IMG/VR virus record: IMGVR_UViG_3300042389_001478
Span: 1 to 64,000 of that record
Strand: one strand, 5' to 3'
Length of the DNA: 64,000 nucleotides
From: a virus
Each line of letters opens with the position of its first letter. The first letter of the stretch is position 1. The position numbers were made by a program, and so were the translations under genes. Positions 1 to 11,664 of the stretch are shown here, piece by piece. Under the pieces are notes generated by a model. It was given only the letters and a program-made list of their open reading frames with translations. It had not been told where the DNA came from and made no database searches.

Positions 1-6
1 TGAGTC

Positions 7-34
7 ATTCTACAGGAGTATCGGCTATTGTCAA
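7..34 (-). promoter_or_regulatory. sigma70-type early promoter
   Basis: Minus strand TTGACA-16 bp-TAGAAT with CCGATA in the spacer; its gene lies off the left edge. Confidence 0.7.
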
Positions 35-61
35 TAGATTCGGTAAGAAATTCTCTTTCGT

Positions 62-143
62 CACAATCCTATGCAAGATAAGGACTTACGTCAAATCCGG
101 CTCCCCGCGTCGGCCCTAAGTGCTTGAGCACAAAGGGTTTACG
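62..143 (+). repeat. 82-bp double-dyad element, copy A
   Basis: cacaatcctat-gcaagat-aaggacttacg, 24-bp GC-rich linker, cctaagtgctt-gagcaca-aagggtttacg. The first arm is degenerate. Confidence 0.85.
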
Positions 144-158
144 ACGAGAGATTATTTT

Positions 159-392
159 TTACTCAAAATCAACAAAGATGATTTGAGCATAACCGCGAGG
201 CTTAACGGTATATCCGTCGCCATAGTCAAGTGTATCAGCCTTGACCGCAGTCATACCGGCCAGAGCCTTAGCCTTACGAACAACGCTACGCTGGCTAGCA
301 TTCTTCTTGGGAATGAATTCATAACGATTCACCCAACCAAAGTTAGCTTCGCCATTGAAAACATCCGTGTGTGTAACTAAAACTTTCATCAA
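159..392 (-). CDS. small phage hypothetical protein
   Basis: 77-aa ORF in the strand of the early region; TDVFNGEANFGWVNR motif resembles a recurrent small phage protein family. Confidence 0.7.
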   Translation of the reverse strand: MMKVLVTHTDVFNGEANFGWVNRYEFIPKKNASQRSVVRKAKALAGMTAVKADTLDYGDGYTVKPRGYAQIIFVDFE

Positions 393-406
393 TTATTCTC
401 CCAAAT

Positions 407-416
407 GGTGTAATAA
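407..416 (+). promoter_or_regulatory. candidate late promoter (GTGTAWWWA motif)
   Basis: GGTGTAATAA 40 nt upstream of the HNH ATG; same motif precedes many structural genes. Confidence 0.5.
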
Positions 417-455
417 ACTAATAGACTCACTACTAAACAATCAAAGGAATTAACA

Positions 456-911
456 ATGCAGACAGAAGACGAAAAAAGAGAAAAGAGAAGAATCCGACAA
501 AAACTCTGGAGAGCTAAGACTAGAAAACAACGAAGGGTCAAAGCAAAAGAATACAGACAAAAAAACAGAGAAAAACTACTAGAACAATCTAAACAAAGAT
601 ACCAAACACATAAAACTAGATACCGAGCATACGCTAAAAAAAACGCCAATCAAAAAAGATTAGAAATCCGCACAAAATTCGATGATCTGATGAAAGACAA
701 GGTTTGTAATAGGTGTAAATTTAGTGACACAAGAGCATTAGTATGGCACCACACCGATCCAAAAACTAAGTCTAATGGAATTGGAACTATGGTCGGAACA
801 GGATCAAATTGGAATAAAATCTTAATAGAAATAGCAAAATGTGAATGTTTATGTGCTAATTGTCATACTATACATCATAAAATTCATTCAACTAAAAAGC
901 ACTTCATTTAA
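456..911 (+). CDS. HNH homing endonuclease
   Basis: Basic N-terminal helix, CxxC (CNRC), HH (WHHTDP) and CANCH motif; opposite strand to all neighbours. Confidence 0.85.
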   Translation: MQTEDEKREKRRIRQKLWRAKTRKQRRVKAKEYRQKNREKLLEQSKQRYQTHKTRYRAYAKKNANQKRLEIRTKFDDLMKDKVCNRCKFSDTRALVWHHTDPKTKSNGIGTMVGTGSNWNKILIEIAKCECLCANCHTIHHKIHSTKKHFI

Positions 912-1041
912 CAAGTTCCTTTGCTTTCATGGTTTCAAGATACAACTGTTCCAACATCTTCACACGGCTCACTGCACGATTAGCTTCACGATCCATAAGC
1001 ATAACTGCTTTCTGGTGTGCTGTCAATTCTTTCTTTTTCAT
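904..1041 (-). CDS. 45-aa hypothetical protein (not in ORF track)
   Basis: MKKKELTAHQKAVMLMDREANRAV...ELVK; lies downstream of the promoter at 1088-1115; three further in-frame ATGs up to 1059. Confidence 0.6.
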   Translation of the reverse strand: MKKKELTAHQKAVMLMDREANRAVSRVKMLEQLYLETMKAKELVK

Positions 1042-1087
1042 TTTCATTTTCATTTTCATTTGCTTTCTCTTTTCTTCTTATATCGAC

Positions 1088-1115
1088 ATTTTACCACAAA
1101 AATCTTAGCTGTCAA
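1088..1115 (-). promoter_or_regulatory. sigma70-type early promoter
   Basis: TTGACA-16-TAAAAT with extended TG, followed by GTCGATA. Confidence 0.75.
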
Positions 1116-1326
1116 GGCTAATTTCTACTGGCCTATAATGTTTTTGCATAGCCAGCTTCACTTCATTCAAACCACGATAGTGGCCAACATAGGTCAATTC
1201 TGGTTGCAGATAATACAGAACGAAATGATTCCAGTCGAGAGGCTTCGGAATGTAGACCACTCTAAAACCCATCAACCCAGCATCGAACTCCAAATCATCA
1301 ACCTCATTCTTGCTCAACTGTCTCAT
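1105..1326 (-). CDS. hypothetical protein
   Basis: 73-aa ORF tightly packed with neighbours. Confidence 0.7.
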   Translation of the reverse strand: MRQLSKNEVDDLEFDAGLMGFRVVYIPKPLDWNHFVLYYLQPELTYVGHYRGLNEVKLAMQKHYRPVEISLDS

Positions 1327-1328
1327 TT

Positions 1329-1517
1329 TTATTCCTCAATTTCACTTACATAGCACTCACAACCAAACTCATAGCCAGCCTTACGTTTGGCTTCACTCTC
1401 ACTACGACAATCAACAACCGTACCAAGATGCTTGTTGTCGCTCTTGCGATAGACCACATACACTCCCGTATCATGACGATTGTATGGATTAAAACGACCT
1501 TCGTAATACCTACTCAT
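1329..1517 (-). CDS. hypothetical protein
   Basis: 62-aa ORF with GAGAG-type RBS, downstream of promoter 1554-1582. Confidence 0.7.
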   Translation of the reverse strand: MSRYYEGRFNPYNRHDTGVYVVYRKSDNKHLGTVVDCRSESEAKRKAGYEFGCECYVSEIEE

Positions 1518-1553
1518 TCTTCACTCTCTCTTTCTCTAATACCTTATATCGAC

Positions 1554-1582
1554 ATTTTAGCATACGGATCTTTAGCTGTCAA
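1554..1582 (-). promoter_or_regulatory. sigma70-type early promoter
   Basis: TTGACA-17-TAAAAT followed by GTCGATA. Confidence 0.8.
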
Positions 1583-1591
1583 ATGCAAAGT

Positions 1592-1613
1592 TTTCTTGCA
1601 ATGTCGTAAGGTT
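1592..1613. promoter_or_regulatory. 22-bp dyad (operator or stem-loop)
   Basis: tttcttgc-aatgtc-gtaaggtt, 9 bp upstream of the -35. Confidence 0.65.
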
Positions 1614-1615
1614 GA

Positions 1616-1697
1616 TGTAAAGTATTGCGGCGTAAAGACTTACATCAAAATCGGCCCGCCCCGCCAGCCCTAAGTGCTTACACACAAAGGGTTTAGG
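1616..1697 (+). repeat. 82-bp double-dyad element, copy B
   Basis: tgtaaagtatt-gcggcgt-aaagacttaca, 24-bp linker tcaaaatcggcccgccccgccagc, cctaagtgctt-acacaca-aagggtttagg. Confidence 0.9.
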
Positions 1698-1705
1698 GCG
1701 AGTGC

Positions 1706-2104
1706 TTAGAATTTTCCTCCAAAATCTGGACTAATTCCAAGTTGCTCCTGAACATCCTCATCGTCCAAAGTATCCTCATCCATCATGAAATCCAGATCAT
1801 CAAAGAACATTTCCAGTTCTGGCTTACCACGATTACTCAAGAGAATAACAAAATCATATAAGAGAAAATAAGCTGTAGCTTGCGCCCAAGACTCGACACA
1901 TCCTGAGTGAAGTTCGATAGTATCTCTATTAGAGAAGACATATTCGATAGCTGCACACTTGATGTTATCGTCCATATCACACCATACAGGAATTTGTTCA
2001 TTATACTTATTCAGTTCATATGACAACTCGTTATCTTTTTTCCAATACTTATAGTTCTCGTATGTAGCTTCAATTATGCTAGTGGCAATCTTTCGATATT
2101 GCAT
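1706..2104 (-). CDS. hypothetical protein with acidic C-terminus
   Basis: 132-aa ORF; C-terminal DDLDFMMDEDTLDDED tract. Confidence 0.7.
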   Translation of the reverse strand: MQYRKIATSIIEATYENYKYWKKDNELSYELNKYNEQIPVWCDMDDNIKCAAIEYVFSNRDTIELHSGCVESWAQATAYFLLYDFVILLSNRGKPELEMFFDDLDFMMDEDTLDDEDVQEQLGISPDFGGKF

Positions 2105-2121
2105 TATCCGTTTCCTTTCAA

Positions 2122-2397
2122 TTAGTCGTTATATGGGCCGTCTTCATTGTAATCCACAAACCCCACGGCCTCATCGGCGTGGAAATCTTCTACTCCATCG
2201 TCACCATAGTAACCGTAATCCTCGTCGGTTCCCCATCCAGCGGAAGCCAACGCAGATTCAGCATCGCCATCCATACTATCATCAAATGAATCATCAGAAT
2301 CATTCTCCAAGTCGTCATTTCCAGCCCAATAATCATTAGTACGATCATCAGCGTCGATACCATAAAAATCGTCATGATCGTCATACTCGTAGCTCAT
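2122..2397 (-). CDS. extremely acidic protein
   Basis: 91 aa, D/E-dominated, contains DGDAESALASAGWGTDEDYG; start assigned at MSYEYD. Confidence 0.8.
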   Translation of the reverse strand: MSYEYDDHDDFYGIDADDRTNDYWAGNDDLENDSDDSFDDSMDGDAESALASAGWGTDEDYGYYGDDGVEDFHADEAVGFVDYNEDGPYND

Positions 2398-2399
2398 GG

Positions 2400-2471
2400 T
2401 CAATCCCTCACGATAGTAGTAATGTAAAACAAGCCAACATAGCCCACAACGAAAGCAATCGCACTAAGCAT
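2400..2471 (-). CDS. 23-aa single-TM peptide
   Basis: MLSAIAFVVGYVGLFYITTIVRD; ATG overlaps the stop of the upstream ORF. Confidence 0.4.
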   Translation of the reverse strand: MLSAIAFVVGYVGLFYITTIVRD

Positions 2472-2637
2472 TAGTATACTCCTCGGGAACAAATTCGTCA
2501 ACAGCACCCACAACGTCAGCCCAATCCCAAAAGTTGACTTCCACACTAGGATCGTCGATAGGCTCGACCATCGGCTCAACAATCCCCGCTTCGGCCATGT
2601 CGTTCAGAATGTCGTTGATCTCGTCGAAGTTCAGCAT
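2464..2637 (-). CDS. 57-aa acidic protein (not in ORF track)
   Basis: MLNFDEINDILNDMAEAG...EEYTNA; 16 D/E and no K/R; AAGGA RBS; promoter at 2675-2703. Confidence 0.75.
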   Translation of the reverse strand: MLNFDEINDILNDMAEAGIVEPMVEPIDDPSVEVNFWDWADVVGAVDEFVPEEYTNA

Positions 2638-2674
2638 GATTCTGTTCCTTATGGGTTATCGTTCGTGTGCTGTG

Positions 2675-2703
2675 ATTCTACACTTATTATCGGCCAGTGT
2701 CAA
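2675..2703 (-). promoter_or_regulatory. sigma70-type early promoter
   Basis: TTGACA-17-TAGAAT with CCGATA in the spacer. Confidence 0.8.
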
Positions 2704-2765
2704 GCACCAACTTAGAAAATTCTGGAATATAATTCCATGCCAAAGATGAAAAATTTTGAAGTTGA

Positions 2766-2847
2766 CGTAAAGTGTTGGTAGATAAAGACTTACGCTTCGC
2801 GGGGCGGGCCGGACTCGACGTAAGTCCTTACAGATGAAGGAGATACG
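2766..2847 (-). repeat. 82-bp double-dyad element, copy C (inverted)
   Basis: Same 29-24-29 geometry, but the linker reads ggggcgggcc (reverse complement of ggcccgcccc) and the TTTACG-ending dyad is on the opposite side. Confidence 0.9.
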
Positions 2848-3016
2848 TCATAGCACAACCGATAACAAAACACACCCCCCACAATATGTAGTCACTCGCT
2901 TTCATCATTTTCCTCCATATACATGATATTTGACATACTAGCGTACAGTACAATACCACAAATATAACCGAAAGCGACACTAACGAAATCCAGTTGATAC
3001 ATCCTTGCATCTCCAT
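2828..3016 (-). CDS. small membrane protein
   Basis: 62-aa ORF with two hydrophobic stretches; its 3' end overlaps dyad copy C; start uncertain. Confidence 0.4.
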   Translation of the reverse strand: MEMQGCINWISLVSLSVIFVVLYCTLVCQISCIWRKMMKASDYILWGVCFVIGCAMTYLLHL

Positions 3017-3026
3017 AGTTATTCGG

Positions 3027-3224
3027 TCAATCCCCGTATCCTACCCAGAAATCATCACCCTTATCACTTTTCATAAGAGTATAACCCCTAGATTTCATAT
3101 TCTCATACTCATTTATCCTTTGCCATACTTCGCACAATGTTTCCATAACCTTTAGAAACGCCCCCATAACCCACACAAAAGGATATTCAATCATTCTCAT
3201 AAGCTTTCTCCTGTTCTGCACCAT
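3027..3224 (-). CDS. hypothetical protein
   Basis: 65-aa ORF; true start probably a downstream Met because the promoter at 3223-3251 abuts it. Confidence 0.55.
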   Translation of the reverse strand: MVQNRRKLMRMIEYPFVWVMGAFLKVMETLCEVWQRINEYENMKSRGYTLMKSDKGDDFWVGYGD

Positions 3225-3251
3225 TCTATACTATTGTTATCGGTTCGTCAA
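3223..3251 (-). promoter_or_regulatory. sigma70-type early promoter
   Basis: TTGACG-17-TAGAAT with CCGATA in the spacer. Confidence 0.75.
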
Positions 3252-3324
3252 GGGCTCTGACTTTAGGCTGACTATACCCACCCATCCCAAATCCAGAGGA
3301 TTAGGAGAGACTAACGATCCTTTT

Positions 3325-3498
3325 TTACTTAGCAGCCAGCAACATAGATTCTTCACGCCACCGACGCAATAGTTCTGTTGCAAGATAGGAAATGTGCTGC
3401 TTCCTCAGTTCGATCATTTCGGGATCAGTATCCCTAGATAGCCTGACCTGTTCAAGCCACAAATTGTCTTGCAAAACCCTAGTGGAAAATTGTTTCAT
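3325..3498 (-). CDS. 57-aa hypothetical protein (not in ORF track)
   Basis: MKQFSTRVLQDNLWLEQV...LLAAK; TATAAT box at 3527-3532 upstream. Confidence 0.6.
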   Translation of the reverse strand: MKQFSTRVLQDNLWLEQVRLSRDTDPEMIELRKQHISYLATELLRRWREESMLLAAK

Positions 3499-3559
3499 CT
3501 TAATTCTTTCTTTCTTTTATCCTATCATTATACCAAACTTTTCCGCCGCCGCCAACCCC

Positions 3560-3832
3560 TCAATTGGGGGAGTATGGCATATTCCTCAGACGAGTCTTAG
3601 CCGGAGTTTCACCGGGTCGCGGCATAGACTGGAAATACTTTTGCCACAGACTATCCATCACGAACTGGACAACACGATCATGAGTACCACGACAAACGTA
3701 GTATCCCATGTGAATGTCGAACAGAGCAAACGATCCATCTGCTTGGGGATGGTAGGTAAATCCACACTTGTAGGCATAGCCTTGAATCTTACCCTTGACA
3801 GTTGCAATCTTTGGAGGCTTTCTCATTTTCAT
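3560..3832 (-). CDS. hypothetical protein
   Basis: Start reassigned to MKMRKPPK because a consensus promoter occupies 3855-3883. Confidence 0.7.
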   Translation of the reverse strand: MKMRKPPKIATVKGKIQGYAYKCGFTYHPQADGSFALFDIHMGYYVCRGTHDRVVQFVMDSLWQKYFQSMPRPGETPAKTRLRNMPYSPN

Positions 3833-3854
3833 TCCTTTTCTTTCTTGTCCTATC

Positions 3855-3883
3855 ATTATACCATTATTATCGTCCAATGTCAA
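3855..3883 (-). promoter_or_regulatory. sigma70 consensus promoter
   Basis: Perfect TTGACA-17-TATAAT with CGATA in the spacer. Confidence 0.9.
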
Positions 3884-3903
3884 TAGGGTAGACCAGAAAA
3901 AAT

Positions 3904-3925
3904 TTTCTTACAAAGCTGTAAGGTT
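3904..3925. promoter_or_regulatory. 22-bp dyad
   Basis: tttcttac-aaagct-gtaaggtt. Confidence 0.65.
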
Positions 3926-3937
3926 TGTGGTTAGTTT

Positions 3938-3997
3938 TGGCACAGTATTTGCTATATGCAATTTTCATGCCAAAAAAGTCTGGCATAGCATTTGCTA
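3938..3997. promoter_or_regulatory. cluster of three sigma54 (-24/-12) consensus boxes
   Basis: Plus strand TGGCACAGTATTTGCTA 3938-3954 and TGGCATAGCATTTGCTA 3981-3997; minus strand TGGCATGAAAATTGCA 3957-3972; all GG-N10-GC. Confidence 0.75.
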
Positions 3998-4008
3998 TGA
4001 AGATTCAT

Positions 4009-4090
4009 CGTAAGTTGTTACTACGTAAGCACTTACGTCAAACGCGGCCCGCCCGCCTAGTCGTAAGTCCTTTGGCAGCAAGGGTTTACG
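4009..4090 (+). repeat. 82-bp double-dyad element, copy D
   Basis: cgtaagttgtt-actacgt-aagcacttacg, 24-bp linker, cgtaagtcctt-tggcagc-aagggtttacg. Confidence 0.95.
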
Positions 4091-4227
4091 TCAAGTTTTG
4101 CGTTTCCTGTATATTCGTTCAGTACCCACCCAAACGGGGAGGTATAGCTTAGGGTATAGCTGTACATACGTACTCTTTACCAATCTCTCAGTCTCTAGTG
4201 TAACGTCGTACACTAGTGTAGTATCGT

Positions 4228-4605
4228 TCACTCATCTTCTCCCTTGAAGCTGAACGGACTGAGTTCAAGGTGAGCAACCGCACCATACTGCTTTGTCAGT
4301 TCCTCGACACGTTCACGCGAACCCGGCTTACCAACTGGAACGATCATGGTATCTTGTCCCCCTACATAGCGGGGATTAGCCTTTTCCTTGCGAACCTTTC
4401 CCAGATTCTTCAAGGCAGTACGGTTGAACTTGATAACCTTCTCGCTCACAACGTATCGCTTCTGATCGGTCACGCCATAGACGTAATCGGTATCTTCTGT
4501 GATTCGATCATCGGGAATTTCGACCAGCATCGGGATTGCAATACCCTTGAAAATCATACGGGCTTGACGCTTGGCATTTTCGATGATGGGGAACTTGGTT
4601 TTCAT
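4228..4605 (-). CDS. hypothetical protein
   Basis: Start reassigned to MKTKFP (purine-rich RBS; TATAAT at 4646-4651). Confidence 0.75.
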   Translation of the reverse strand: MKTKFPIIENAKRQARMIFKGIAIPMLVEIPDDRITEDTDYVYGVTDQKRYVVSEKVIKFNRTALKNLGKVRKEKANPRYVGGQDTMIVPVGKPGSRERVEELTKQYGAVAHLELSPFSFKGEDE

Positions 4606-4645
4606 TTTCTTTTCTCTCTTAGGTCTATCGTTCTCTTGTATGTGC

Positions 4646-4673
4646 ATTATACCAAACTGTTTTTCAATGTCCA
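4646..4673 (-). promoter_or_regulatory. sigma70-type early promoter
   Basis: TGGACA-16-TATAAT. Confidence 0.6.
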
Positions 4674-4682
4674 GCGAAAAGT

Positions 4683-4704
4683 TTCCTTACAATTCCGTAA
4701 GGTT
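4683..4704. promoter_or_regulatory. 22-bp dyad
   Basis: ttccttac-aattcc-gtaaggtt; abuts the stop codon of the upstream gene. Confidence 0.7.
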
Positions 4705-4970
4705 CATTCTCCCTCATCTTCACCCCATTCGCCATCGTCAAGGCCCGGAATGTAGTCCCCCTCATCGACACAAGCCTCGCACATCATATCATAGTAGAGA
4801 GCGTTTACGTTGTTCAGAATCTGATTCTCTGAACGAATCCACACCCCATCGTGAATCATTTCTTTCGGCTCAACCTTGAAAGACGATCCGGCTTGAATCA
4901 CTCGCACCTTGTGCGAATCCTTACCGAAAACCTGTCGAACACCAGCCATCACTTTGTCGAGCGTAATCAT
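4704..4970 (-). CDS. hypothetical protein with acidic tail
   Basis: Start reassigned to MITLDK; C-terminus DDGEWGEDEGE. Confidence 0.75.
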   Translation of the reverse strand: MITLDKVMAGVRQVFGKDSHKVRVIQAGSSFKVEPKEMIHDGVWIRSENQILNNVNALYYDMMCEACVDEGDYIPGLDDGEWGEDEGE

Positions 4971-5000
4971 TTTTCTTTCTCCTGTTCTTTCTATATCGAC

Positions 5001-5028
5001 ATTATACCAAAGGATATTTAGGTTGCAA
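5001..5028 (-). promoter_or_regulatory. sigma70-type early promoter
   Basis: TTGCAA-16-TATAAT followed by GTCGATA. Confidence 0.75.
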
Positions 5029-5037
5029 GCGAAAAGT

Positions 5038-5059
5038 TTCCTTACAATTTCGTAAGGTT
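5038..5059. promoter_or_regulatory. 22-bp dyad
   Basis: ttccttac-aatttc-gtaaggtt; 5029-5059 is nearly identical to 4674-4704. Confidence 0.7.
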
Positions 5060-5063
5060 GGAT

Positions 5064-5080
5064 TGGCATAGTATTTGCTA
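5064..5080 (+). promoter_or_regulatory. sigma54 consensus box
   Basis: TGGCATAGTATTTGCTA, exactly 11 nt before dyad copy E. Confidence 0.75.
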
Positions 5081-5091
5081 CGAGAATTTGT

Positions 5092-5173
5092 CGTAAGTCT
5101 TTATCTAGCAAGCACTTACGTCAAGCTCGGCCCGCCCCGCTCGTCGTAAGTCGTTACGAGCTAAGGGTTTACG
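5092..5173 (+). repeat. 82-bp double-dyad element, copy E
   Basis: cgtaagtcttt-atctagc-aagcacttacg, linker tcaagctcggcccgccccgctcgt, cgtaagtcgtt-acgagct-aagggtttacg. Confidence 0.95.
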
Positions 5174-5174
5174 T

Positions 5175-5492
5175 CTAGTATATCAGGTTCATATCGGCCA
5201 CAGTCATACCATCTTCATATGGTGTACCATCGTTCAGGTACCATTCGCCTTTCTTCTGATACACACGTACAGGTGAATACTTGTTCATCCTATCCTTGGT
5301 GGTACTCGTATGCCACCCCCCACTATTGAGGGTAGCACTATTGTCGGGATGAATCCTCACAACAGTTGTGCCATGTAGAATAATCCCTACGCTACCATCT
5401 ACAAGAATTTCCGCATAGGTATTGTTGCCAACCTTACGAGTAGTACGCTTAGTCTTACCATGCACCATCTTAGTAGCTTCGAAGTGTGTCAT
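5175..5492 (-). CDS. conserved-looking phage hypothetical protein
   Basis: 105 aa with LHGTTVV...SGGWHTSTTKDRMN motif typical of a recurring phage early protein. Confidence 0.8.
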   Translation of the reverse strand: MTHFEATKMVHGKTKRTTRKVGNNTYAEILVDGSVGIILHGTTVVRIHPDNSATLNSGGWHTSTTKDRMNKYSPVRVYQKKGEWYLNDGTPYEDGMTVADMNLIY

Positions 5493-5515
5493 ATTCTTTT
5501 CTTTCCTTTTTGGAG

Positions 5516-5629
5516 TTAGTCGTTCAGCATGGAATGGATAGCGTTACCAATCTCATGCACAGTGTAGGTGATAAAGGCACAGCCCGTAATCAGGGCAAAC
5601 AGCTGAACATATTCGATAGTCGTAATCAT
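5516..5629 (-). CDS. 37-aa membrane peptide (not in ORF track)
   Basis: MITTIEYVQLFALITGCAFITYTVHEIGNAIHSMLND fills the gap between two genes. Confidence 0.55.
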   Translation of the reverse strand: MITTIEYVQLFALITGCAFITYTVHEIGNAIHSMLND

Positions 5630-5639
5630 TAGAAGTCTT

Positions 5640-5837
5640 TCAATATTTGATAAGCTGATTTGCAACATTAAACCGAATCAATCCAGATACACTACGATTA
5701 GCCAAGAGGCTATCGGTAACATTCTTTCCATCCCGTAGGATGGTTTGAATCACAAAGGAACCACTAGGATAAACCTTGAAGGTTGCAGTGGTGTTGCCAA
5801 ACTTCATCGTATGCCAAGTTTCGTATCCAAAATTCAT
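5640..5837 (-). CDS. hypothetical protein
   Basis: 65-aa ORF downstream of promoter 5866-5895. Confidence 0.65.
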   Translation of the reverse strand: MNFGYETWHTMKFGNTTATFKVYPSGSFVIQTILRDGKNVTDSLLANRSVSGLIRFNVANQLIKY

Positions 5838-5865
5838 TTTCTTTTTCCTTTTCTCTTGTTTCTCT

Positions 5866-5895
5866 ATTATACAGTATCGGTTATTCTCTTGTCAA
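5866..5895 (-). promoter_or_regulatory. sigma70-type early promoter
   Basis: TTGACA-18-TATAAT with CCGATA in the spacer. Confidence 0.8.
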
Positions 5896-5901
5896 CTCTT
5901 G

Positions 5902-5923
5902 AACCTTGCAATATCGTAAGGTT
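5902..5923. promoter_or_regulatory. 22-bp dyad
   Basis: aaccttgc-aatatc-gtaaggtt; overlaps the stop of the upstream gene. Confidence 0.7.
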
Positions 5924-6126
5924 CAGATTCTCCACTCAACAAACTTGAGGGTGAACACTTGACCAGGATATTTGCTAGCGATATACGCTTGTGCAGTTTC
6001 CTTACGGTTATCGTCAGCACTAACGCCTTGAACAACCTTTCCATCAATCGTCACACTCCAAATCTTACGCTTACGAATCCTAGGGAGCGAAGCGATGAAA
6101 CCGTTGATGCTAGTAGTCTTTTCCAT
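5923..6126 (-). CDS. hypothetical protein
   Basis: Start reassigned to MEKTTS; promoter at 6169-6196. Confidence 0.7.
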   Translation of the reverse strand: MEKTTSINGFIASLPRIRKRKIWSVTIDGKVVQGVSADDNRKETAQAYIASKYPGQVFTLKFVEWRI

Positions 6127-6168
6127 TTTTCTTTTTCTCTTTCTTTCTCTCTTACTTCTTATATCGAC

Positions 6169-6196
6169 ATTATACCATCGATTCTTTAGATTGCAA
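6169..6196 (-). promoter_or_regulatory. sigma70-type early promoter
   Basis: TTGCAA-16-TATAAT-GTCGATA; region is near-identical to 7268-7312. Confidence 0.75.
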
Positions 6197-6260
6197 GAGA
6201 AAAATTTCAAGAATATTGTCAAGAGATTTTGACAAAACTTTTCTCAATTTTGAATACGAT

Positions 6261-6304
6261 TGGCACAGTATTTGCTACGTGCAATTATGGCACAGCATTT
6301 GCTA
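6261..6304 (+). promoter_or_regulatory. two tandem sigma54 consensus boxes
   Basis: TGGCACAGTATTTGCTA 6261-6277 and TGGCACAGCATTTGCTA 6288-6304; the second is 11 nt before dyad copy F. Confidence 0.75.
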
Positions 6305-6315
6305 TGCTGATTCGT

Positions 6316-6397
6316 CGTAAGTCGTTATCTCATAAACACTTACGTCGATTTTGGCGCCGCAAATTTGTCGTAAGTCGTTTAGCAGCAAGGGTTTACG
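6316..6397 (+). repeat. 82-bp double-dyad element, copy F
   Basis: cgtaagtcgtt-atctcat-aaacacttacg, 24-bp linker, cgtaagtcgtt-tagcagc-aagggtttacg. Confidence 0.95.
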
Positions 6398-6492
6398 TCA
6401 AGTCTGCTAGTGTACAAGCATATTCCCTATAACCATGCCCAGTCTGTACATAAGAACAGTTAGTAGTATACATCCGATCATATCTACAACAA

Positions 6493-6672
6493 TCATACAA
6501 GCGCCTCCGCCTTAGCCTGTAGAGATTCCACAAGTGCCCAGCATTCATTGAACGTGATATGTCGAGCGATCACCACTCCACCATACCATACCTCATAGCG
6601 ATCACCAGCACGATTCGAAGTATTCCAGTAGATCATTTTTTCTTCGTAGTATTTTGTATCGTTCGTATTCAT
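6493..6672 (-). CDS. hypothetical protein
   Basis: Start reassigned to MNTNDTK (AAGG RBS; promoter 6695-6723). Confidence 0.65.
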   Translation of the reverse strand: MNTNDTKYYEEKMIYWNTSNRAGDRYEVWYGGVVIARHITFNECWALVESLQAKAEALV

Positions 6673-6694
6673 CGCTTGGTTTCCTTGTGCTTGT

Positions 6695-6723
6695 ATTCTA
6701 TACATCGGCCGTTTAGCTGTCAA
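6695..6723 (-). promoter_or_regulatory. sigma70-type early promoter
   Basis: TTGACA-17-TAGAAT with CCGAT in the spacer. Confidence 0.8.
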
Positions 6724-6902
6724 GCGTTAGCCAAATATTCACAAGATACACACTTGTCAAGGTACATTGAACGATACCCTACCCCGTCAACCTTCAGGGT
6801 AAACAGCAAACGGTATCCATGCATATACTTGATGGAAACGATTTCTCCAACAAACTTTTCACCCGTTTCGTATTCGACCGCAACATTGTATCCGATTTCC
6901 AT
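6720..6902 (-). CDS. small beta-barrel-like hypothetical protein
   Basis: Start reassigned to MEIGYNVAVEYETGEKFVGEI (SH3/Sm-like pattern); promoter 6942-6969. Confidence 0.65.
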   Translation of the reverse strand: MEIGYNVAVEYETGEKFVGEIVSIKYMHGYRLLFTLKVDGVGYRSMYLDKCVSCEYLANA

Positions 6903-6941
6903 TTTCTTATCCTCTTTAGTGTTCTTCGTTCTTCTGTCTCT

Positions 6942-6969
6942 ATTATACATATCGGCTTTTGGGGGTCAA
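6942..6969 (-). promoter_or_regulatory. sigma70-type early promoter
   Basis: TTGACC-16-TATAAT with CCGATA in the spacer. Confidence 0.75.
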
Positions 6970-6976
6970 TAGCTTG

Positions 6977-6998
6977 AACCTTACAATCTCGTAAGGTT
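6977..6998. promoter_or_regulatory. 22-bp perfect dyad
   Basis: AACCTTAC-aatctc-GTAAGGTT. Confidence 0.75.
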
Positions 6999-7003
6999 GA
7001 GTC

Positions 7004-7237
7004 TCACCGATAGATTCCATCGGAGATAACGTATCCATCGTTATCCACTTCGATGAACTCACCCTCATCGCCCATCGGAAAGAAATATTCGATCATGTTT
7101 CGATTGTTCTTTGCTTCGTCAAGCAATTCACCACCGATTGCATACTCAGTACCAACCAGCGTATCCAGTTCAACCGGATTGTTGTAGAGCACGTTTTCCA
7201 GTTCAACCCGATTCATGATGATTTTCGTATTCTTCAT
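7004..7237 (-). CDS. acidic hypothetical protein
   Basis: 77-aa ORF, D/E rich, RBS AAGGA. Confidence 0.7.
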   Translation of the reverse strand: MKNTKIIMNRVELENVLYNNPVELDTLVGTEYAIGGELLDEAKNNRNMIEYFFPMGDEGEFIEVDNDGYVISDGIYR

Positions 7238-7278
7238 TTTCTTATCCTTCTTTCTTTCTTCTTTTCTCTTATATCGAC

Positions 7279-7306
7279 ATTATACAGAGTATTCTTTAGG
7301 TTTCAA
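7279..7306 (-). promoter_or_regulatory. sigma70-type early promoter
   Basis: TTGAAA-16-TATAAT-GTCGATA. Confidence 0.7.
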
Positions 7307-7371
7307 GAGAAATTTTTGGATTTTTTCAAATATATTTTCATGCCAAACAAAATATTTTTATTTTTATACTT

Positions 7372-7388
7372 TGGAATACCATTTGCGT
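7372..7388 (+). promoter_or_regulatory. degenerate sigma54-like box
   Basis: TGGAATACCATTTGCGT (GG-N10-GC), 10 nt before dyad copy G. Confidence 0.45.
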
Positions 7389-7398
7389 ACATATTTGA

Positions 7399-7480
7399 CG
7401 TAAAGTATTGATACATAAGCACTTACATCAAATTTTCGTGAGTAAACATGCCCTAAGTCGTTACCCAACATGGGGTTAGG
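7399..7480 (+). repeat. 82-bp double-dyad element, copy G
   Basis: cgtaaagtatt-gatacat-aagcacttaca, 24-bp linker, cctaagtcgtt-acccaac-atggggttagg; 7401-7413 TAAAGTATTGATA matches the IHF consensus. Confidence 0.85.
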
Positions 7481-7619
7481 GGTTTTTCTGTTTCTACAGG
7501 ACATTAGACAAAGTTTCCCAAAAAGGCCAGGAGATCCACAAATAGTAAGCACCTCCTAAAATAAATGTAATACCTAAACCTTAATGGTAGCCCCTATGTG
7601 CTTCTTTTGTTTCTATCTG

Positions 7620-9227
7620 TTATTTATTAATGACTCTTTCCCAAGCTATCGAAACTTGTCTCGATATAGGATCATAAACCACAATCTTTATATCGTTAGC
7701 TCCTTTATGAAACCAGTTTCTATTCAACGAGATATTGAATCCGTGTCTGGGGCTACCAACCACTGGAATTAGCGCTGGCCTATACTGATTAGCCCACTGA
7801 CCAGCTACTACTCTTCCGTTAATAACTACTCTAACAAAAACCGGAGATACTCCAGATCTTTCGCTAAATGCCCATCCACTAATCCTATTCAATCTTAAAT
7901 ATCCAACACTGACCACGGGAGGAGCAACATTCACATTGGTTGACGCCACATTGCCCCACAAACCCGTGTTTGAGTCTCTTGCCTCCACGCTTATAACATG
8001 TTCCCCTATTGTGAGACCGCCCAGATTAAAAACAAATGACCCACCAACTCCAGTCCACATTAACCCTTTATCTGCACCATCTATTATTAGTCGTACACAA
8101 ATACTAGAGTTCGGAGAGTTAAGATCTTTAGCCCACCCACTAATACTTCTTAAATTCTGACTGATTATGGCTCCTGTTGGTAATATGTTTCCATCATAAG
8201 CAACCCCCAACACATTAGCCACGGCTGCTCCCATATTCAACTTTCCTCCGGTTGATACCTTTCCGAATAATTCTGGAAGCTTATCTACTGATCCAAAAAT
8301 AGCAGCCTTAACTTTTGAAATTGATAATCCAGGTTTAACAGAGTTCAACAAAGCTACAGCACCAGCCACTTGAGGAGCTGCCATACTAGTCCCCGCCATA
8401 TATCCATAATTATTATATGGAATAGTAGATAGTATCATGCTACCAGGAGCAGCAATATCTACATTAGTAGCTCCATAATTTGAAAAGCTAGCTAACTTTA
8501 TTCCATCATATCCTAAAGCCCCTACACTAATAATATTATCATTATCAAAACAACTAGGATATCTTAATGTAATATCATTATCGCTACCATTATTACCAGC
8601 CGCCACCGTCACCACCACCCCAGCATCATTTAATCTACCAATCGCCCCATACAACATATTACTAAAACCAGTCCCCCCACCCCAACTAGCATTAGCTACT
8701 ACCACATTTACTCCATAAGTATTCTTCATCATACTAATATAATCCATGGCTCGAATAGCCCCACCAGTATCCCCCACACCCTTATCATCCATAAACTTTA
8801 AAGCCATCAAGCTTACACCCCAATTAATTCCCGCAACCCCCAAGCTATTGCCCCCTTCTGCACCAATTATGCCAGCCACATGAGTTCCATGACCATATCT
8901 ATCCTGAACGTCATTAGTATTATTTGCAAAATTCCACCCATTAACATCGTCTATATATCCATTACCCTCATTATCTATACCATCTCCTTGTATCTCCCCA
9001 GGATTAGTCCATAAATTATTCACTAGATCTTGATTGGTTAAATCAATACCACTATCAATTACAGCAACCACAACATTTTTAGAGCCAGTACCATACTGCC
9101 ATGCTTGATAAGCTGAGATACTTTGCAAACCCCACTGATCATTAATTCGTGGGTCATTAGGAACTACTGATAATAACGTTTTGTTCTCTATAGACTCTGG
9201 ACCAGCTAACTTCCATGCTTTTTTCAT
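7620..9227 (-). CDS. S8 (subtilisin-family) serine protease with C-terminal Ig-like repeats
   Basis: Intact triad motifs VAVIDSG, YGHGTHVAG and GTSMAAPQV; two ISGWA repeats at the C-terminus; LEPRxLL-like leader ESIENKTLLS. Confidence 0.95.
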   Translation of the reverse strand: MKKAWKLAGPESIENKTLLSVVPNDPRINDQWGLQSISAYQAWQYGTGSKNVVVAVIDSGIDLTNQDLVNNLWTNPGEIQGDGIDNEGNGYIDDVNGWNFANNTNDVQDRYGHGTHVAGIIGAEGGNSLGVAGINWGVSLMALKFMDDKGVGDTGGAIRAMDYISMMKNTYGVNVVVANASWGGGTGFSNMLYGAIGRLNDAGVVVTVAAGNNGSDNDITLRYPSCFDNDNIISVGALGYDGIKLASFSNYGATNVDIAAPGSMILSTIPYNNYGYMAGTSMAAPQVAGAVALLNSVKPGLSISKVKAAIFGSVDKLPELFGKVSTGGKLNMGAAVANVLGVAYDGNILPTGAIISQNLRSISGWAKDLNSPNSSICVRLIIDGADKGLMWTGVGGSFVFNLGGLTIGEHVISVEARDSNTGLWGNVASTNVNVAPPVVSVGYLRLNRISGWAFSERSGVSPVFVRVVINGRVVAGQWANQYRPALIPVVGSPRHGFNISLNRNWFHKGANDIKIVVYDPISRQVSIAWERVINK

Positions 9228-9308
9228 TTGGTGTCCTACCTGGTTTTGTCATAAAATTTCCGCCCCAGACCTGACATTACCAGAAAAAACAAAGAAGTCA
9301 ATAGTTTT

Positions 9309-9593
9309 TTAATATTTTACTGGAACATAAACTGTCTGAGGAATTCTCACTATTTCATAGCGCTTATGAAAACACCATACTTTATGTTCTACTAATACAT
9401 CTTGATAAGTTGTAACAGGAACATATTGAGGAACTATTGGTACATTATAGTATTGAACCAATTGAAAGTTCTGGACTATTGGAGCTGGTTGAACCACAAT
9501 CGGAGGTCGATATACATAAGGAACCCACCCCTCATTCCCACAAGCCACACCGCTTACAACAAAGAAAAATATTCCAGCTAATATCTTTTTCAT
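9309..9593 (-). CDS. secreted Pro/Val/Tyr-rich small protein
   Basis: Start at MKKILAGIFFFVVSGVACG (signal peptide), then YRPPIVVQPAP-type repeats. Confidence 0.6.
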   Translation of the reverse strand: MKKILAGIFFFVVSGVACGNEGWVPYVYRPPIVVQPAPIVQNFQLVQYYNVPIVPQYVPVTTYQDVLVEHKVWCFHKRYEIVRIPQTVYVPVKY

Positions 9594-9745
9594 AAAAAAT
9601 CCCTCGTTAATAAAGTAAATTGACCGATTTCCACACATTATTTAATATCGACATCAGGCCCCTACAACCTTTAAAAAAATAATTCCAGATGACACCAATG
9701 CCACCTGGAACTATTAGTTTTAAATCAAAATAATAAACAAAATAA

Positions 9746-9979
9746 TCAACTAGAAACAACACTATCATTATTACTAGCATCAACAAGCTTATTCTTCCTT
9801 GGTCGTCCTCGTGCCTTCTTTAGAGCCAGCTTGCGCCTTTGACGACGAACCATTGCTGTTGTTACATTTTGGCCAGTTATTTGACTCAACTTCGATGCTA
9901 GTGCCTCATCACAAAGAAGAGAATGATTATTCTGAATATAATCAATTTCAGTAGTTGTCCATTTCTTATAATTTGCCAT
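9746..9979 (-). CDS. Myb/HTH-like DNA-binding protein with AT-hook
   Basis: KKWTTTEIDYI helix start and C-terminal RGRPRK. Confidence 0.7.
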   Translation of the reverse strand: MANYKKWTTTEIDYIQNNHSLLCDEALASKLSQITGQNVTTAMVRRQRRKLALKKARGRPRKNKLVDASNNDSVVSS

Positions 9980-10066
9980 AAAGTATTACTTTCCTAATTA
10001 AAGTTGACGAAAAGTGTAAACACTTTATTATACTAGTGTTTGGCAAGTTTTGTGCAAGGAGAGAAA

Positions 10067-10234
10067 ATGACTAATCCAGAAATTAATATTGTAGACTCCA
10101 TATTGACCGTAAAAGCTTCTGGTACTGATCTTAATATAAATCACGACCTAGAACTACCTCAAGGAAAGAGCATAGCACAACTATTATATGACCAAGAGAA
10201 CACAGAAATCCCCCAAGAAGAAGAATCCTGCTAA
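10067..10234 (+). CDS. hypothetical protein
   Basis: ATG at 10067 with AGGAGAG RBS; first gene of the plus-strand block. Confidence 0.55.
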   Translation: MTNPEINIVDSILTVKASGTDLNINHDLELPQGKSIAQLLYDQENTEIPQEEESC

Positions 10235-10844
10235 ACTCCCCAAAGGGGTCACAGAGGAGCAATTTTTAGCCGTATTAGACAATATTAGCAAAAGGCTAGG
10301 CCACAAATTCAAATTTGGCTATCACAGCTTTGAGGACATGAAACAACAAGCAGCAATCTTTGCTCTTGAAGGATTAGAAAAATATGATAATAGTCGCCCC
10401 CTAGAAAACTTCTTATGGACCCACGTAAGAAATCGTCTTTTTAATTACAAAAGAGATAACTATCAAAGGCCCGATAAACCCTGCTTAAGCTGTCCTCTAT
10501 ATGATGCTCATTGCAAGGTATCAACTAATCAGTGTTCCGAATATACTGACAAGAATGAGTGTGAATTATTTTCTGCTTGGGAAACTCGCAATAACTCTAA
10601 AAAGAATATTATGAAGCCCGTTGGCATGGAAGAAGTTCACGAAACATCATCCAGGAAACAATCAGAAATTCCAGACATGGTATTTAATCAACAAATTATC
10701 GAATTACTAGATAAACACATACCATCATCATGCCGAGAAACATATCTAAGATTAAAATATGGAGAGAAAATCTACAAGGCCGATATGTTAAAACTACACG
10801 CTGTTATTCAAGAGATACTCAGAGAACACAATTATGAGTACTAA
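10188..10844 (+). CDS. phage sigma70/ECF-like transcription factor (putative late sigma)
   Basis: Region-2-like EDMKQQAAIFALEGLEKYD...FLWTHVRNRLFNYKR; Cys-rich insert; region-4-like C-terminus; sits at the head of the structural operon. Confidence 0.75.
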   Translation: MTKRTQKSPKKKNPAKLPKGVTEEQFLAVLDNISKRLGHKFKFGYHSFEDMKQQAAIFALEGLEKYDNSRPLENFLWTHVRNRLFNYKRDNYQRPDKPCLSCPLYDAHCKVSTNQCSEYTDKNECELFSAWETRNNSKKNIMKPVGMEEVHETSSRKQSEIPDMVFNQQIIELLDKHIPSSCRETYLRLKYGEKIYKADMLKLHAVIQEILREHNYEY

Positions 10845-11664
10845 ACCTCCAAAAAAAAGAGGTCAACTAAGCTTAGAAGAAGAAAAATATATTAGAGATA
10901 ATATGACAACTTCTTCATTAGAAGATATAGCAGAATATTTGAATCGTAGTATTGCCCCAATAGAGAGATACATTTCAGAAGAACAATTAGCCAAAGACCC
11001 CACCGAACAAACTGATGAAAGAATATTAAGACAAAAATTACACAGCAAAAACTTTTGGGGAGAAATTAAAAGACAATTTGATGCTGATACCGGTGAACTA
11101 GAATACTTCGAAAGTCTCTGGACTAATCTGATAAAACAATTTAGAGAAGACGTATTGCCCGCAGAAGAACTTCAAATCAAACAATTTATTACAATTGATA
11201 TTCTGATTAATCGAAGCATGAAAGAACGAAAGCGTCATATTGCAGAAACTGAGAAACTTCAAAAGGAGGTTGATAAGGAGTATGCTAAACCCGAAAATGA
11301 ACGAGATATACCGAGACTTGCTAATCTCGAAACTCAGCTATCGTTTGCCCGCAACAGCATCGCTAATTATACTAATGAATATACCAAACTTCTTAATGAA
11401 CAGCAAAAAATTAGCAAAGATCTTAAAGCTACTCGTGAACAAAGAATAAAAAGAATAGAAGACGGTAAAAGTAGCTGGGTGGGTTTAATACGAATGCTAG
11501 AAGATGAAGAAGTAAGAGAAAGAGAAGGCAGAGAAATGGAAATTATTAGTATGGCCACAGATAAGATGAAAACCGTACTATATGATTACCATCAATATGC
11601 TGATAATACATTAGATATGCCATTTTTAACCCCGGACAGCGTTACTCAAAAGGATAATCAATGA
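10834..11664 (+). CDS. HTH plus coiled-coil protein, possible small terminase
   Basis: N-terminal SLEEEKYI...LEDIAEYLNRS HTH-like motif and long coiled coil; upstream of TerL. The function call is positional. Confidence 0.45.
   Translation: MSTKPPKKRGQLSLEEEKYIRDNMTTSSLEDIAEYLNRSIAPIERYISEEQLAKDPTEQTDERILRQKLHSKNFWGEIKRQFDADTGELEYFESLWTNLIKQFREDVLPAEELQIKQFITIDILINRSMKERKRHIAETEKLQKEVDKEYAKPENERDIPRLANLETQLSFARNSIANYTNEYTKLLNEQQKISKDLKATREQRIKRIEDGKSSWVGLIRMLEDEEVREREGREMEIISMATDKMKTVLYDYHQYADNTLDMPFLTPDSVTQKDNQ

Follow-up and report, generated by a model that had tools for sequence, protein, structure and literature searches.

An apparently undescribed paired-dyad element accompanies early promoters in a large group of uncultured giant phages

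Large phages carry many unknown genes in their early ("host take-over") regions, and the switching of these regions on and off is understood in only a handful of model phages. The first 64,000 nucleotides of IMG/VR virus record IMGVR_UViG_3300042389_001478 (the window) pose this question in a concrete form, with an 82-bp element, built of two 29-bp inverted repeats (dyads a and b) separated by exactly 24 bp, recurring seven times among the small genes at its left end. What is this element, and what might it do for the genes around it? A sequence-only reading of the window had proposed a phased protein-binding scaffold, bent by integration host factor (IHF) or another nucleoid-associated protein or made of recombinase-like sites, rather than an RNA hairpin. 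Here, we describe the anatomy and spread of the element, its one-sided and helically phased placement beside sigma70-type promoters, and the evidence on whether it acts as DNA or as RNA, and we argue for a DNA-level protein platform coupled to the early promoter, a reading to which we give an even chance.

Seven copies in the early region

The window belongs to a single viral contig of 192,497 bp (36.5% G+C), a genome rated complete by CheckV. Small minus-strand genes fill positions 1-9980, with at least 14 near-consensus sigma70-type promoters (TTGACA-16/18-TAnAAT) to drive them. All copies of the element lie inside the first 7.5 kb. Using a position weight matrix derived from the family at large, the seven copies scored 55-111 bits, the next-best site in the genome scored -9 bits and the maximum in a shuffled genome was -23 bits; on the strength of this gap, we count exactly seven copies. 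They are given here with the small motifs (mini-dyads and sigma54-like boxes, both treated below) and the promoters beside them:

62 to 143, plus strand: copy 1, 76.8 bits, first arm degenerate; a sigma70-type promoter (34 to 7, minus strand) lies 27 nt off the a edge
1616 to 1697, plus strand: copy 2, 89.1 bits; the a edge is adjoined by a mini-dyad (1594-1611) and a promoter (1582 to 1554, minus strand), and the b edge is 8 nt from the stop of the gene at 1706-2104 (minus strand)
2766 to 2847, minus strand (inverted): copy 3, 81.8 bits on that strand; a promoter (2703 to 2675) lies to its left, and the 3' end of a small minus-strand open reading frame (ORF) extends into its right dyad
4009 to 4090, plus strand: copy 4, 110.7 bits, the best match; two sigma54-like boxes (3938-3952 and 3981-3995) precede it
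5092 to 5173, plus strand: copy 5, 101.3 bits; on the a side a sigma54-like box (5064-5078), a mini-dyad (5040-5057) and a promoter (5028 to 5001), and at the b edge, 1 nt away, the stop of the gene at 5175-5492 (minus strand)
6316 to 6397, plus strand: copy 6, 88.9 bits; on the a side sigma54-like boxes (6261-6275 and 6288-6302) and a promoter (6196 to 6169)
7399 to 7480, plus strand: copy 7, 55.5 bits, the weakest, with an AT-rich spacer; on the a side a weak sigma54-like box (7372-7386) and a promoter (7306 to 7279)

A recount returned the seven starts, the 29-24-29 layout and the 14 mutually different seven-base cores that the sequence-only reading had reported. Its description needs correction in three respects: the copy at 2766 is inverted, its spacer being the reverse complement of that of the other copies, the copy at 62 has a degenerate arm, and the dyads are longer than 29 bp. 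Across the family, dyad a has the consensus CGTAAGTCGTT-N7-AAGsACTTACG, the GC-rich 24-bp spacer TCAAA..GGCCsGCC..TnGC, and dyad b CsTAAGTCCTT-N7-AAGGGTTTACG. With its flanks, each dyad reads TTGn-CGTAAGTCnTT-N7-AAGsACTTACG-nCAA, the conserved TTGn and nCAA stretching it to about 37 bp, and the dyad centres are 53 bp apart across the spacer. Conservation is highest in the two inner boxes, and the outer boxes drift symmetrically toward CGTAAA(C/G). In 1.2 Mb of related loci, 376 of the 382 GTAAGT/ACTTAC pairs have a gap of 15, and pairs of inner arms are found at hardly any spacer other than 24 bp. Solo dyads account for at most 9% of all dyads, and a MAFFT alignment of 140 diverse copies contained zero gaps.

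The half-site GTAAG of the element is shared by an 18-bp mini-dyad, CCTTAC-N6-GTAAGG, which occurs six times in the genome, in the early region only, each time 8-22 nt upstream of a -35 box:

1594 to 1611: mini-dyad
3906 to 3923: mini-dyad
4685 to 4702: mini-dyad
5040 to 5057: mini-dyad
5904 to 5921: mini-dyad
6979 to 6996: mini-dyad

The centres of GTAAG half-sites therefore lie 11 bp apart in the mini-dyad, 22 bp apart within a dyad and 31 bp apart between dyads.

The promoter beside copy 1 reads out over the left end of the contig. The region it occupies (window positions 1-61) is internal in a 238-kb relative, so the contig start is arbitrary and the early region may extend further.

Occurrence in related phages

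An exact-pattern scan of IMG/VR yielded at least 119 loci on at least 99 different viral contigs, and the element matrix found at least 493 copies on these loci, at least 430 of them unique, all with the same layout and without indels. In 17 near-complete relatives (128-244 kb, several with terminal repeats), the strict core pattern occurs 3-17 times per genome and a reversed control pattern 0 times. The copies are confined to one stretch of 15-25 kb beside a gene for a helix-turn-helix (HTH) protein, as seen in the six relatives with listed positions. The same pattern, scanned against 185,579 prokaryote genomes, was found on five small contigs only, from metagenome-assembled genomes of unrelated phyla, which are likely mis-binned phage; a sixth match, on a 1.75-Mb contig, fails the element matrix and is apparently due to chance. 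Scanning the full genome, its relatives and bacterial genomes, along the lines that the sequence-only reading had suggested, places the element in the relatives' early regions with its fixed 24-bp pairing, and it was not found in bacterial chromosomes; the planctomycete host assumed in that reading is unsupported in our analysis. Neither the region, the element nor a neighbouring protein matched any of 50,697 cultured-phage records by BLAST, and an Rfam scan of the whole window gave no match. Collectively, these findings show the element to be real and widespread, and it is an apparently undescribed cis element of a large group of uncultured giant phages.

Placement at sigma70-type promoters

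Full flanks were available for 422 copies, and a promoter was counted if it lay no more than 220 nt off and agreed with the consensus at 10 or more of 12 positions. In 301 of these copies (71%), such a promoter stands on the a side and fires away from the element, most often 25-40 nt off; other placements were rarer (b side pointing away, 45; b side pointing in, 36; a side pointing in, 13). Given this excess, the element is a polar component of an early-promoter cassette, in which it occupies the upstream end. A stop codon directly precedes it (median distance 23 nt; 1 nt or less in a quarter of cases), and the gene on its b side lies on the opposite strand in 77% of cases, ending a median of 23 nt away. 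The polarity of this cassette, together with the inverted copy and the spread in related phages, had been missed when only the window was read.

Distances between the a edge and the -35 box peak mainly at 18, 28-29, 39, 49-50 and 59-62, and the ranges 20-23, 34-36 and 45-47 are empty. Fourier amplitude at 10-11.5 bp was 0.29-0.39 on the raw distances and 0.295 after linkers at least 60% identical had been collapsed into 148 clusters, in comparison to a 99.9th percentile of 0.276 under a jitter null (p ~0.0005). The spacing is quantised in steps of about 10.5-11 bp, or about one helical turn. Such a period is expected of face-of-helix contacts between DNA-bound proteins, and an RNA terminator gives no reason for it.

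RNA hairpin or DNA site

The strongest competitor places the element at the RNA level, as the 3' end of the upstream early mRNA, where two hairpins or one long hairpin would terminate, process or stabilise the transcript in the manner of the stem-loops of PeSL (promoter-early stem-loop) cassettes, T7 RNase III sites or the repetitive extragenic palindromic (REP) sequences and bacterial interspersed mosaic elements (BIMEs). The position directly behind stop codons speaks for this, T4-type PeSL cassettes do join a stem-loop terminator to a sigma70 promoter (PMC4122927), and a sequence-specific RNA-binding factor would account for the conserved arms. In addition, tRNA-3'-end-like sequences sometimes abut the element (by eye; no tRNA scan was run), and a terminator scan, which found none at the elements, also found no canonical terminators on the gene strand of the 7.5-kb early region.

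Most of the seven copies also fold better than shuffled sequence (z -1.4 to -4.3), but the fold is not a constant feature. Over all seven, z ranges from +0.1 to -4.3, the predicted shapes change from copy to copy (two hairpins, one long hairpin, others), and for the copy at 7399, whose boxes and geometry are intact, neither strand gives a better fold than shuffled sequence (z ~0). Nor does the sequence variation follow base pairing. At variable stem pairs, the Watson-Crick fraction equals that expected from column make-up and mutual information is 0-0.14 bit; pairs 8/22 and 9/21 even pair below expectation, as if variable positions shunned pairing. The covariation score over 140 sequences was 0.118 against a shuffle mean of 0.134, with 500 of 500 shuffles scoring at least as high, and pair 55/81 alone shows some covariation. 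Family flank composition reveals no U-tract or T-run behind the hairpins in either direction, and the strand that is normally transcribed (the gene strand) yields the worse b hairpin, with A.C and C.A mismatches. The lack of any indel in loops or spacer and the helical phasing to the promoter would be unexpected for an RNA element, and the missing Rfam match also counts against one. We therefore regard an RNA-level role as unlikely, and the preference of the sequence-only reading for a phased DNA scaffold over a hairpin is strengthened by the absence of covariation and of indels, the inconsistent folds and the helical promoter spacing.

Candidate binding proteins

If the element is a binding site, its binder probably belongs to the conserved HTH-like proteins whose genes adjoin the early region; a conserved host factor could possibly take this place instead. 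Clustering of ORFs over all loci identified a conserved gene block at the head of the early region, in which three genes are relevant:

9746 to 9979, minus strand: candidate binder 1, 77 aa, the first gene of the leftward early region; predicted Myb/GcrA-like HTH with an RGRP AT-hook tail
10188 to 10844, plus strand: sigma-like factor with weak Sigma70_r2 and PHROG sigma matches and a cysteine-rich insert; present in 25 of 25 large relatives
10834 to 11664, plus strand: candidate binder 2, 276 aa, right after the sigma-like gene; by eye an N-terminal HTH-like motif and a long helical region

The family of the 77-aa protein spans 72-89 aa. Of 25 large relatives, 23 have a single copy of its gene, in each case at the margin of the stretch that bears the elements. 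Structure prediction gave a confident three-helix bundle (core pLDDT, the predicted local distance difference test score, above 90; mean 80) followed by a disordered basic tail. Look-alikes by fold and by language model are weak and mostly of HTH type (GcrA, small-terminase HTH, Myb domains, a homeodomain), the most conserved stretch of the family alignment is predicted helix 3, and the RGRP AT-hook is found in the tails of 14 of 26 members, below the Pfam cut-off. A putatively autoregulatory CTTAC-N26-GTAAR pair stands in the 5' leader of the gene in one subclade only. The most distant relative is without the 77-aa gene; next after its sigma-like gene comes one for a 369-aa protein whose N-terminal motifs are HTH-like. 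The 276-aa protein is present in 25 of 25 large relatives, the most distant match being marginal. BLASTP did not support paralogy of the 77-aa and 276-aa proteins. The sigma-like and 276-aa genes are oriented divergently from the early region.

A proposed protein platform at the early promoter

We infer that the element is read as double-stranded DNA. As the upstream part of an early-promoter cassette, it starts just past the stop codon of one early gene, and its a dyad faces the sigma70-type promoter of the next unit at steps of about one helical turn. Two dimers or one tetramer of a sequence-specific protein would line up along one face of the helix, occupy the four GTAAG-type half-sites and control or insulate the adjacent promoter, whether by shutting it off, by boosting it through contact with RNA polymerase or by blocking read-through from upstream.

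Several observations weigh against such a platform or against its candidate binder. Half of the strongest early promoters in the window (7 of 14; 11-12 of 12 matches, or TTGCAA) have no element within 130 nt. A minor series of distances (33, 44, 66, 87) sits on the opposite helix face and consists of those classes in which a mini-dyad or sigma54-like box is present, and part of the phasing could stem from quantised UP-element or A-tract linkers. The outer arm of the b dyad favours G.T (64%) and T.G (50%), which are wobble pairs in RNA of plus orientation. One complete relative (G012) has the element without a detectable homologue of the 77-aa protein, and the co-occurrence of element and HTH gene within one clade may reflect shared ancestry. 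Finally, conservation of the box sequence exceeds that of every phage protein in the comparison, a possible sign of a host factor or of an intrinsic nucleic-acid role.

Somewhat more doubtful is the broader proposal, which we offer tentatively, that the element belongs to an undescribed early-transcription control system common to a large clade of uncultured 130-240 kb phages. Under this proposal, a dedicated Myb/GcrA-like phage protein would sit on dispersed four-box elements, whole helical turns from sigma70 promoters, and every early gene cassette would be timed or insulated at once. The element provides a sharp and easily recognised marker of early transcription units in at least 99 uncultured giant-phage contigs, and it pairs testably with small conserved HTH proteins, with the prediction that its function depends on helical phase. 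If confirmed, this would constitute a new operator-regulator system and offer a practical means of annotating early promoters and cassette boundaries in metagenomic phages.

Sigma54-like boxes, nucleoid proteins and recombination

Three further explanations start from other features of the element, and even jointly we find them a rather unlikely alternative to a promoter-coupled platform. The first starts from the box TGGCAY-N5-TTGC, which in this genome occurs only adjoining elements. Near-perfect sigma54-type -24/-12 boxes pointing into elements are found at:

3938 to 3952: box pointing into copy 4
3981 to 3995: box pointing into copy 4
5064 to 5078: box pointing into copy 5
6261 to 6275: box pointing into copy 6
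6288 to 6302: box pointing into copy 6
7372 to 7386: box pointing into copy 7

A single reversed box at about 3958-3972 makes a TGCCA...TGGCA palindrome with its neighbour. With such boxes as promoters, the dyads could be the structured 5' end of a small antisense RNA, starting at the TGGCAC-N5-TTGC box 11 nt upstream of the element, or an enhancer for the activator of that promoter. Among relatives, 65 of 285 copies have a box on the a side pointing in, at fixed offsets of -28/-27 or -23/-22, and 3 have it on the other side; RNA of plus orientation has wobble-compatible b stems, and T-runs follow b in some copies. However, this leaves the box at only about 23% of elements, with boxes in both orientations side by side, and the dyads would fall at about +1 to +85, within the polymerase footprint. 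An enhancer (upstream activating sequence) would be expected some 70-150 bp from the box rather than 11 nt, the phage genome contains no enhancer-binding ATPase (PF00158), and the absence of covariation disfavours a structured RNA here too. The box is an optional module of the linker, and we consider a sigma54-based function improbable.

The second explanation, a host nucleoid-protein scaffold (IHF, HU, Fis or gyrase) similar to the BIME-1 or RIP (repetitive IHF-binding palindromic) elements of E. coli, would fit the conservation of the boxes beyond that of the compared phage proteins, and two palindromic units around a fixed linker resemble BIME-1. The sequence-only reading was correct in its IHF match at 7401-7413 (reverse strand), which is nevertheless peculiar to that copy: the consensus WATCAANNNNTTR is present in 47 of the 430 copies listed (11%), always at equivalent positions, and missing from the other 89%. 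The spacer is GC-rich rather than AT-rich, no IHF or HU gene is present in the phage genome, and the scan of prokaryote chromosomes, in which a host factor could be expected to have sites of its own, did not find the element. The proposed IHF-bent architecture is not supported, and a nucleoid-protein scaffold in general seems highly unlikely.

The third, and by a little the least probable, is a recombination or mobility site, such as an attC-like, dif-like or miniature inverted-repeat transposable element (MITE)/REP-like sequence, that shuffles early-gene cassettes. All copies have the 11-7-11 layout of tyrosine-recombinase sites (inverted arms around a 6-8 bp core), and this and the four-box nested palindrome resemble recombination "simple sites". 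Comparison of gene content between copies, suggested along with the recombinase idea, did reveal that early cassettes are mosaic between relatives, with BLAST breakpoints 2.3-fold enriched at elements; breakpoints are equally common, though, at gene boundaries without an element. A shared core and a cognate enzyme are both absent: the cores differ among all copies, which argues against site-specific recombination, and the genome contains no tyrosine or serine recombinase or Y1 transposase (PF00589, PF00239, PF01797). Because the element flanks are inverted and not direct repeats, no target-site duplication is seen. By profile searches, the earlier observation that the window has no recombinase, IHF or enhancer-binding protein gene extends to the whole genome, and the notion of recombinase-like sites is not sustained.

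Two more readings were rejected: a CRISPR-like mini-array, in view of the differing loops of its "repeats" and its conserved "spacer", and promoters for the phage sigma-like factor, since the boxes, inspected by eye, offered no suitable hexamer pair.

Comparison with known systems

The element belongs to none of the families with which we compared it; its best functional analogy is phi29 p4 and its best positional analogy the T4-type PeSL. The phi29 p4 regions (sites 1-4) each contain two imperfect inverted repeats with arms 15 bp apart, at or upstream of early sigma-A promoters, and the small phage protein p4, bound there on one face in dimeric form, bends the DNA and so switches early transcription (PMC3100819, PMC1904284). 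Our element shares the 15-bp arm gap, the paired inverted repeats and the position at early sigma70-type promoters. The phi29 sequence, CTTTTT-N15-AAAATG, is unrelated, with the N15 geometry alone in common; phi29 has two regions, whereas here 3-17 copies are dispersed, each with a GC-rich fixed 24-bp spacer. A search for a p4 homologue (PF05464) gave no match in the phage genome, in a search that control genomes did not validate.

PeSLs are repeated intergenic cassettes of T4-type phages, in which a stem-loop and a near-consensus sigma70 early promoter stand among small variable genes (PMC2839356, PMC4122927). The likeness lies in a palindrome just upstream of a sigma70-like early promoter amid small ORFs and mosaic neighbours, as for the 301 of 422 copies described above. 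A PeSL, in contrast, has a single terminator stem-loop, short and variable in sequence, whereas the unit described here has 82-90 bp and four boxes, invariant sequence and geometry, no U-tract and no covariation, and belongs to another phage clade. PeSL cassettes also mark recombination breakpoints; here, the enrichment of breakpoints at elements is matched at other gene boundaries. The mini-dyad next to the -35 box is a closer analogue than the large element, and the mini-dyads look like either the nearest counterpart of PeSL stem-loops or an operator.

Other resemblances are more remote. BIME-1/RIP elements of enterobacteria are chromosomal paired REP units with an IHF site in the linker, linked to REP-associated tyrosine transposases (RAYTs). 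They also consist of two imperfect palindromes that flank a fixed linker outside genes, just past gene ends, but they differ in sequence and in being chromosomal, and neither the linker IHF site nor the RAYT link was found for the phage-borne element. The attC site of integrons (59-base element) varies in length, is conserved in structure rather than sequence and needs IntI. Four boxes, two simple sites in an overall imperfect palindrome and a place at the 3' end of small gene cassettes are common to both, whereas the length and sequence of our element are fixed and the phage genome has no integrase. Mycobacteriophage stoperators and the Aca operators of anti-CRISPR promoters are single sites of 13-20 bp that usually overlap promoters or lie downstream of them. 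Through these numerous short phage-specific sites, a small HTH protein controls strong phage promoters, much as is proposed for the element, which differs in being an 82-bp paired dyad upstream of the promoter.

Other features of the early region

Pfam and PHROGs gave almost no matches for the small early proteins, and a structure prediction for a widespread 125-aa early protein (4228-4605) was too poor for use (pLDDT 64). Among the genes that could be assigned, a 535-aa subtilase (7620-9227, minus strand; Peptidase_S8, E = 5e-48) is encoded within the leftward early block, with the HTH gene on one side and the first element on the other. An HNH endonuclease gene (456-911, plus strand; PHROG HNH families, E = 1e-16) stands on the opposite strand amid the early genes. 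It is missing from the syntenic spot in several relatives, in which the flanks at 377 and 896 are contiguous, and is therefore probably a recent homing-type insertion.

On the minus strand of 1-7310, there are apparently two promoter flavours. The first has CCGATA(A/T) conserved in the spacer and a TAGAAT -10 box; the second has a -35 box of TTGCAA or TTGAAA and an extended TGnTATAAT, followed right after the -10 by the conserved GTCGATATAAG (repeat family D10). The 137-nt gap between copy 4 and its upstream gene (4091-4227) contains more inverted repeats, for example CTAGTGTA...TACACTAG.

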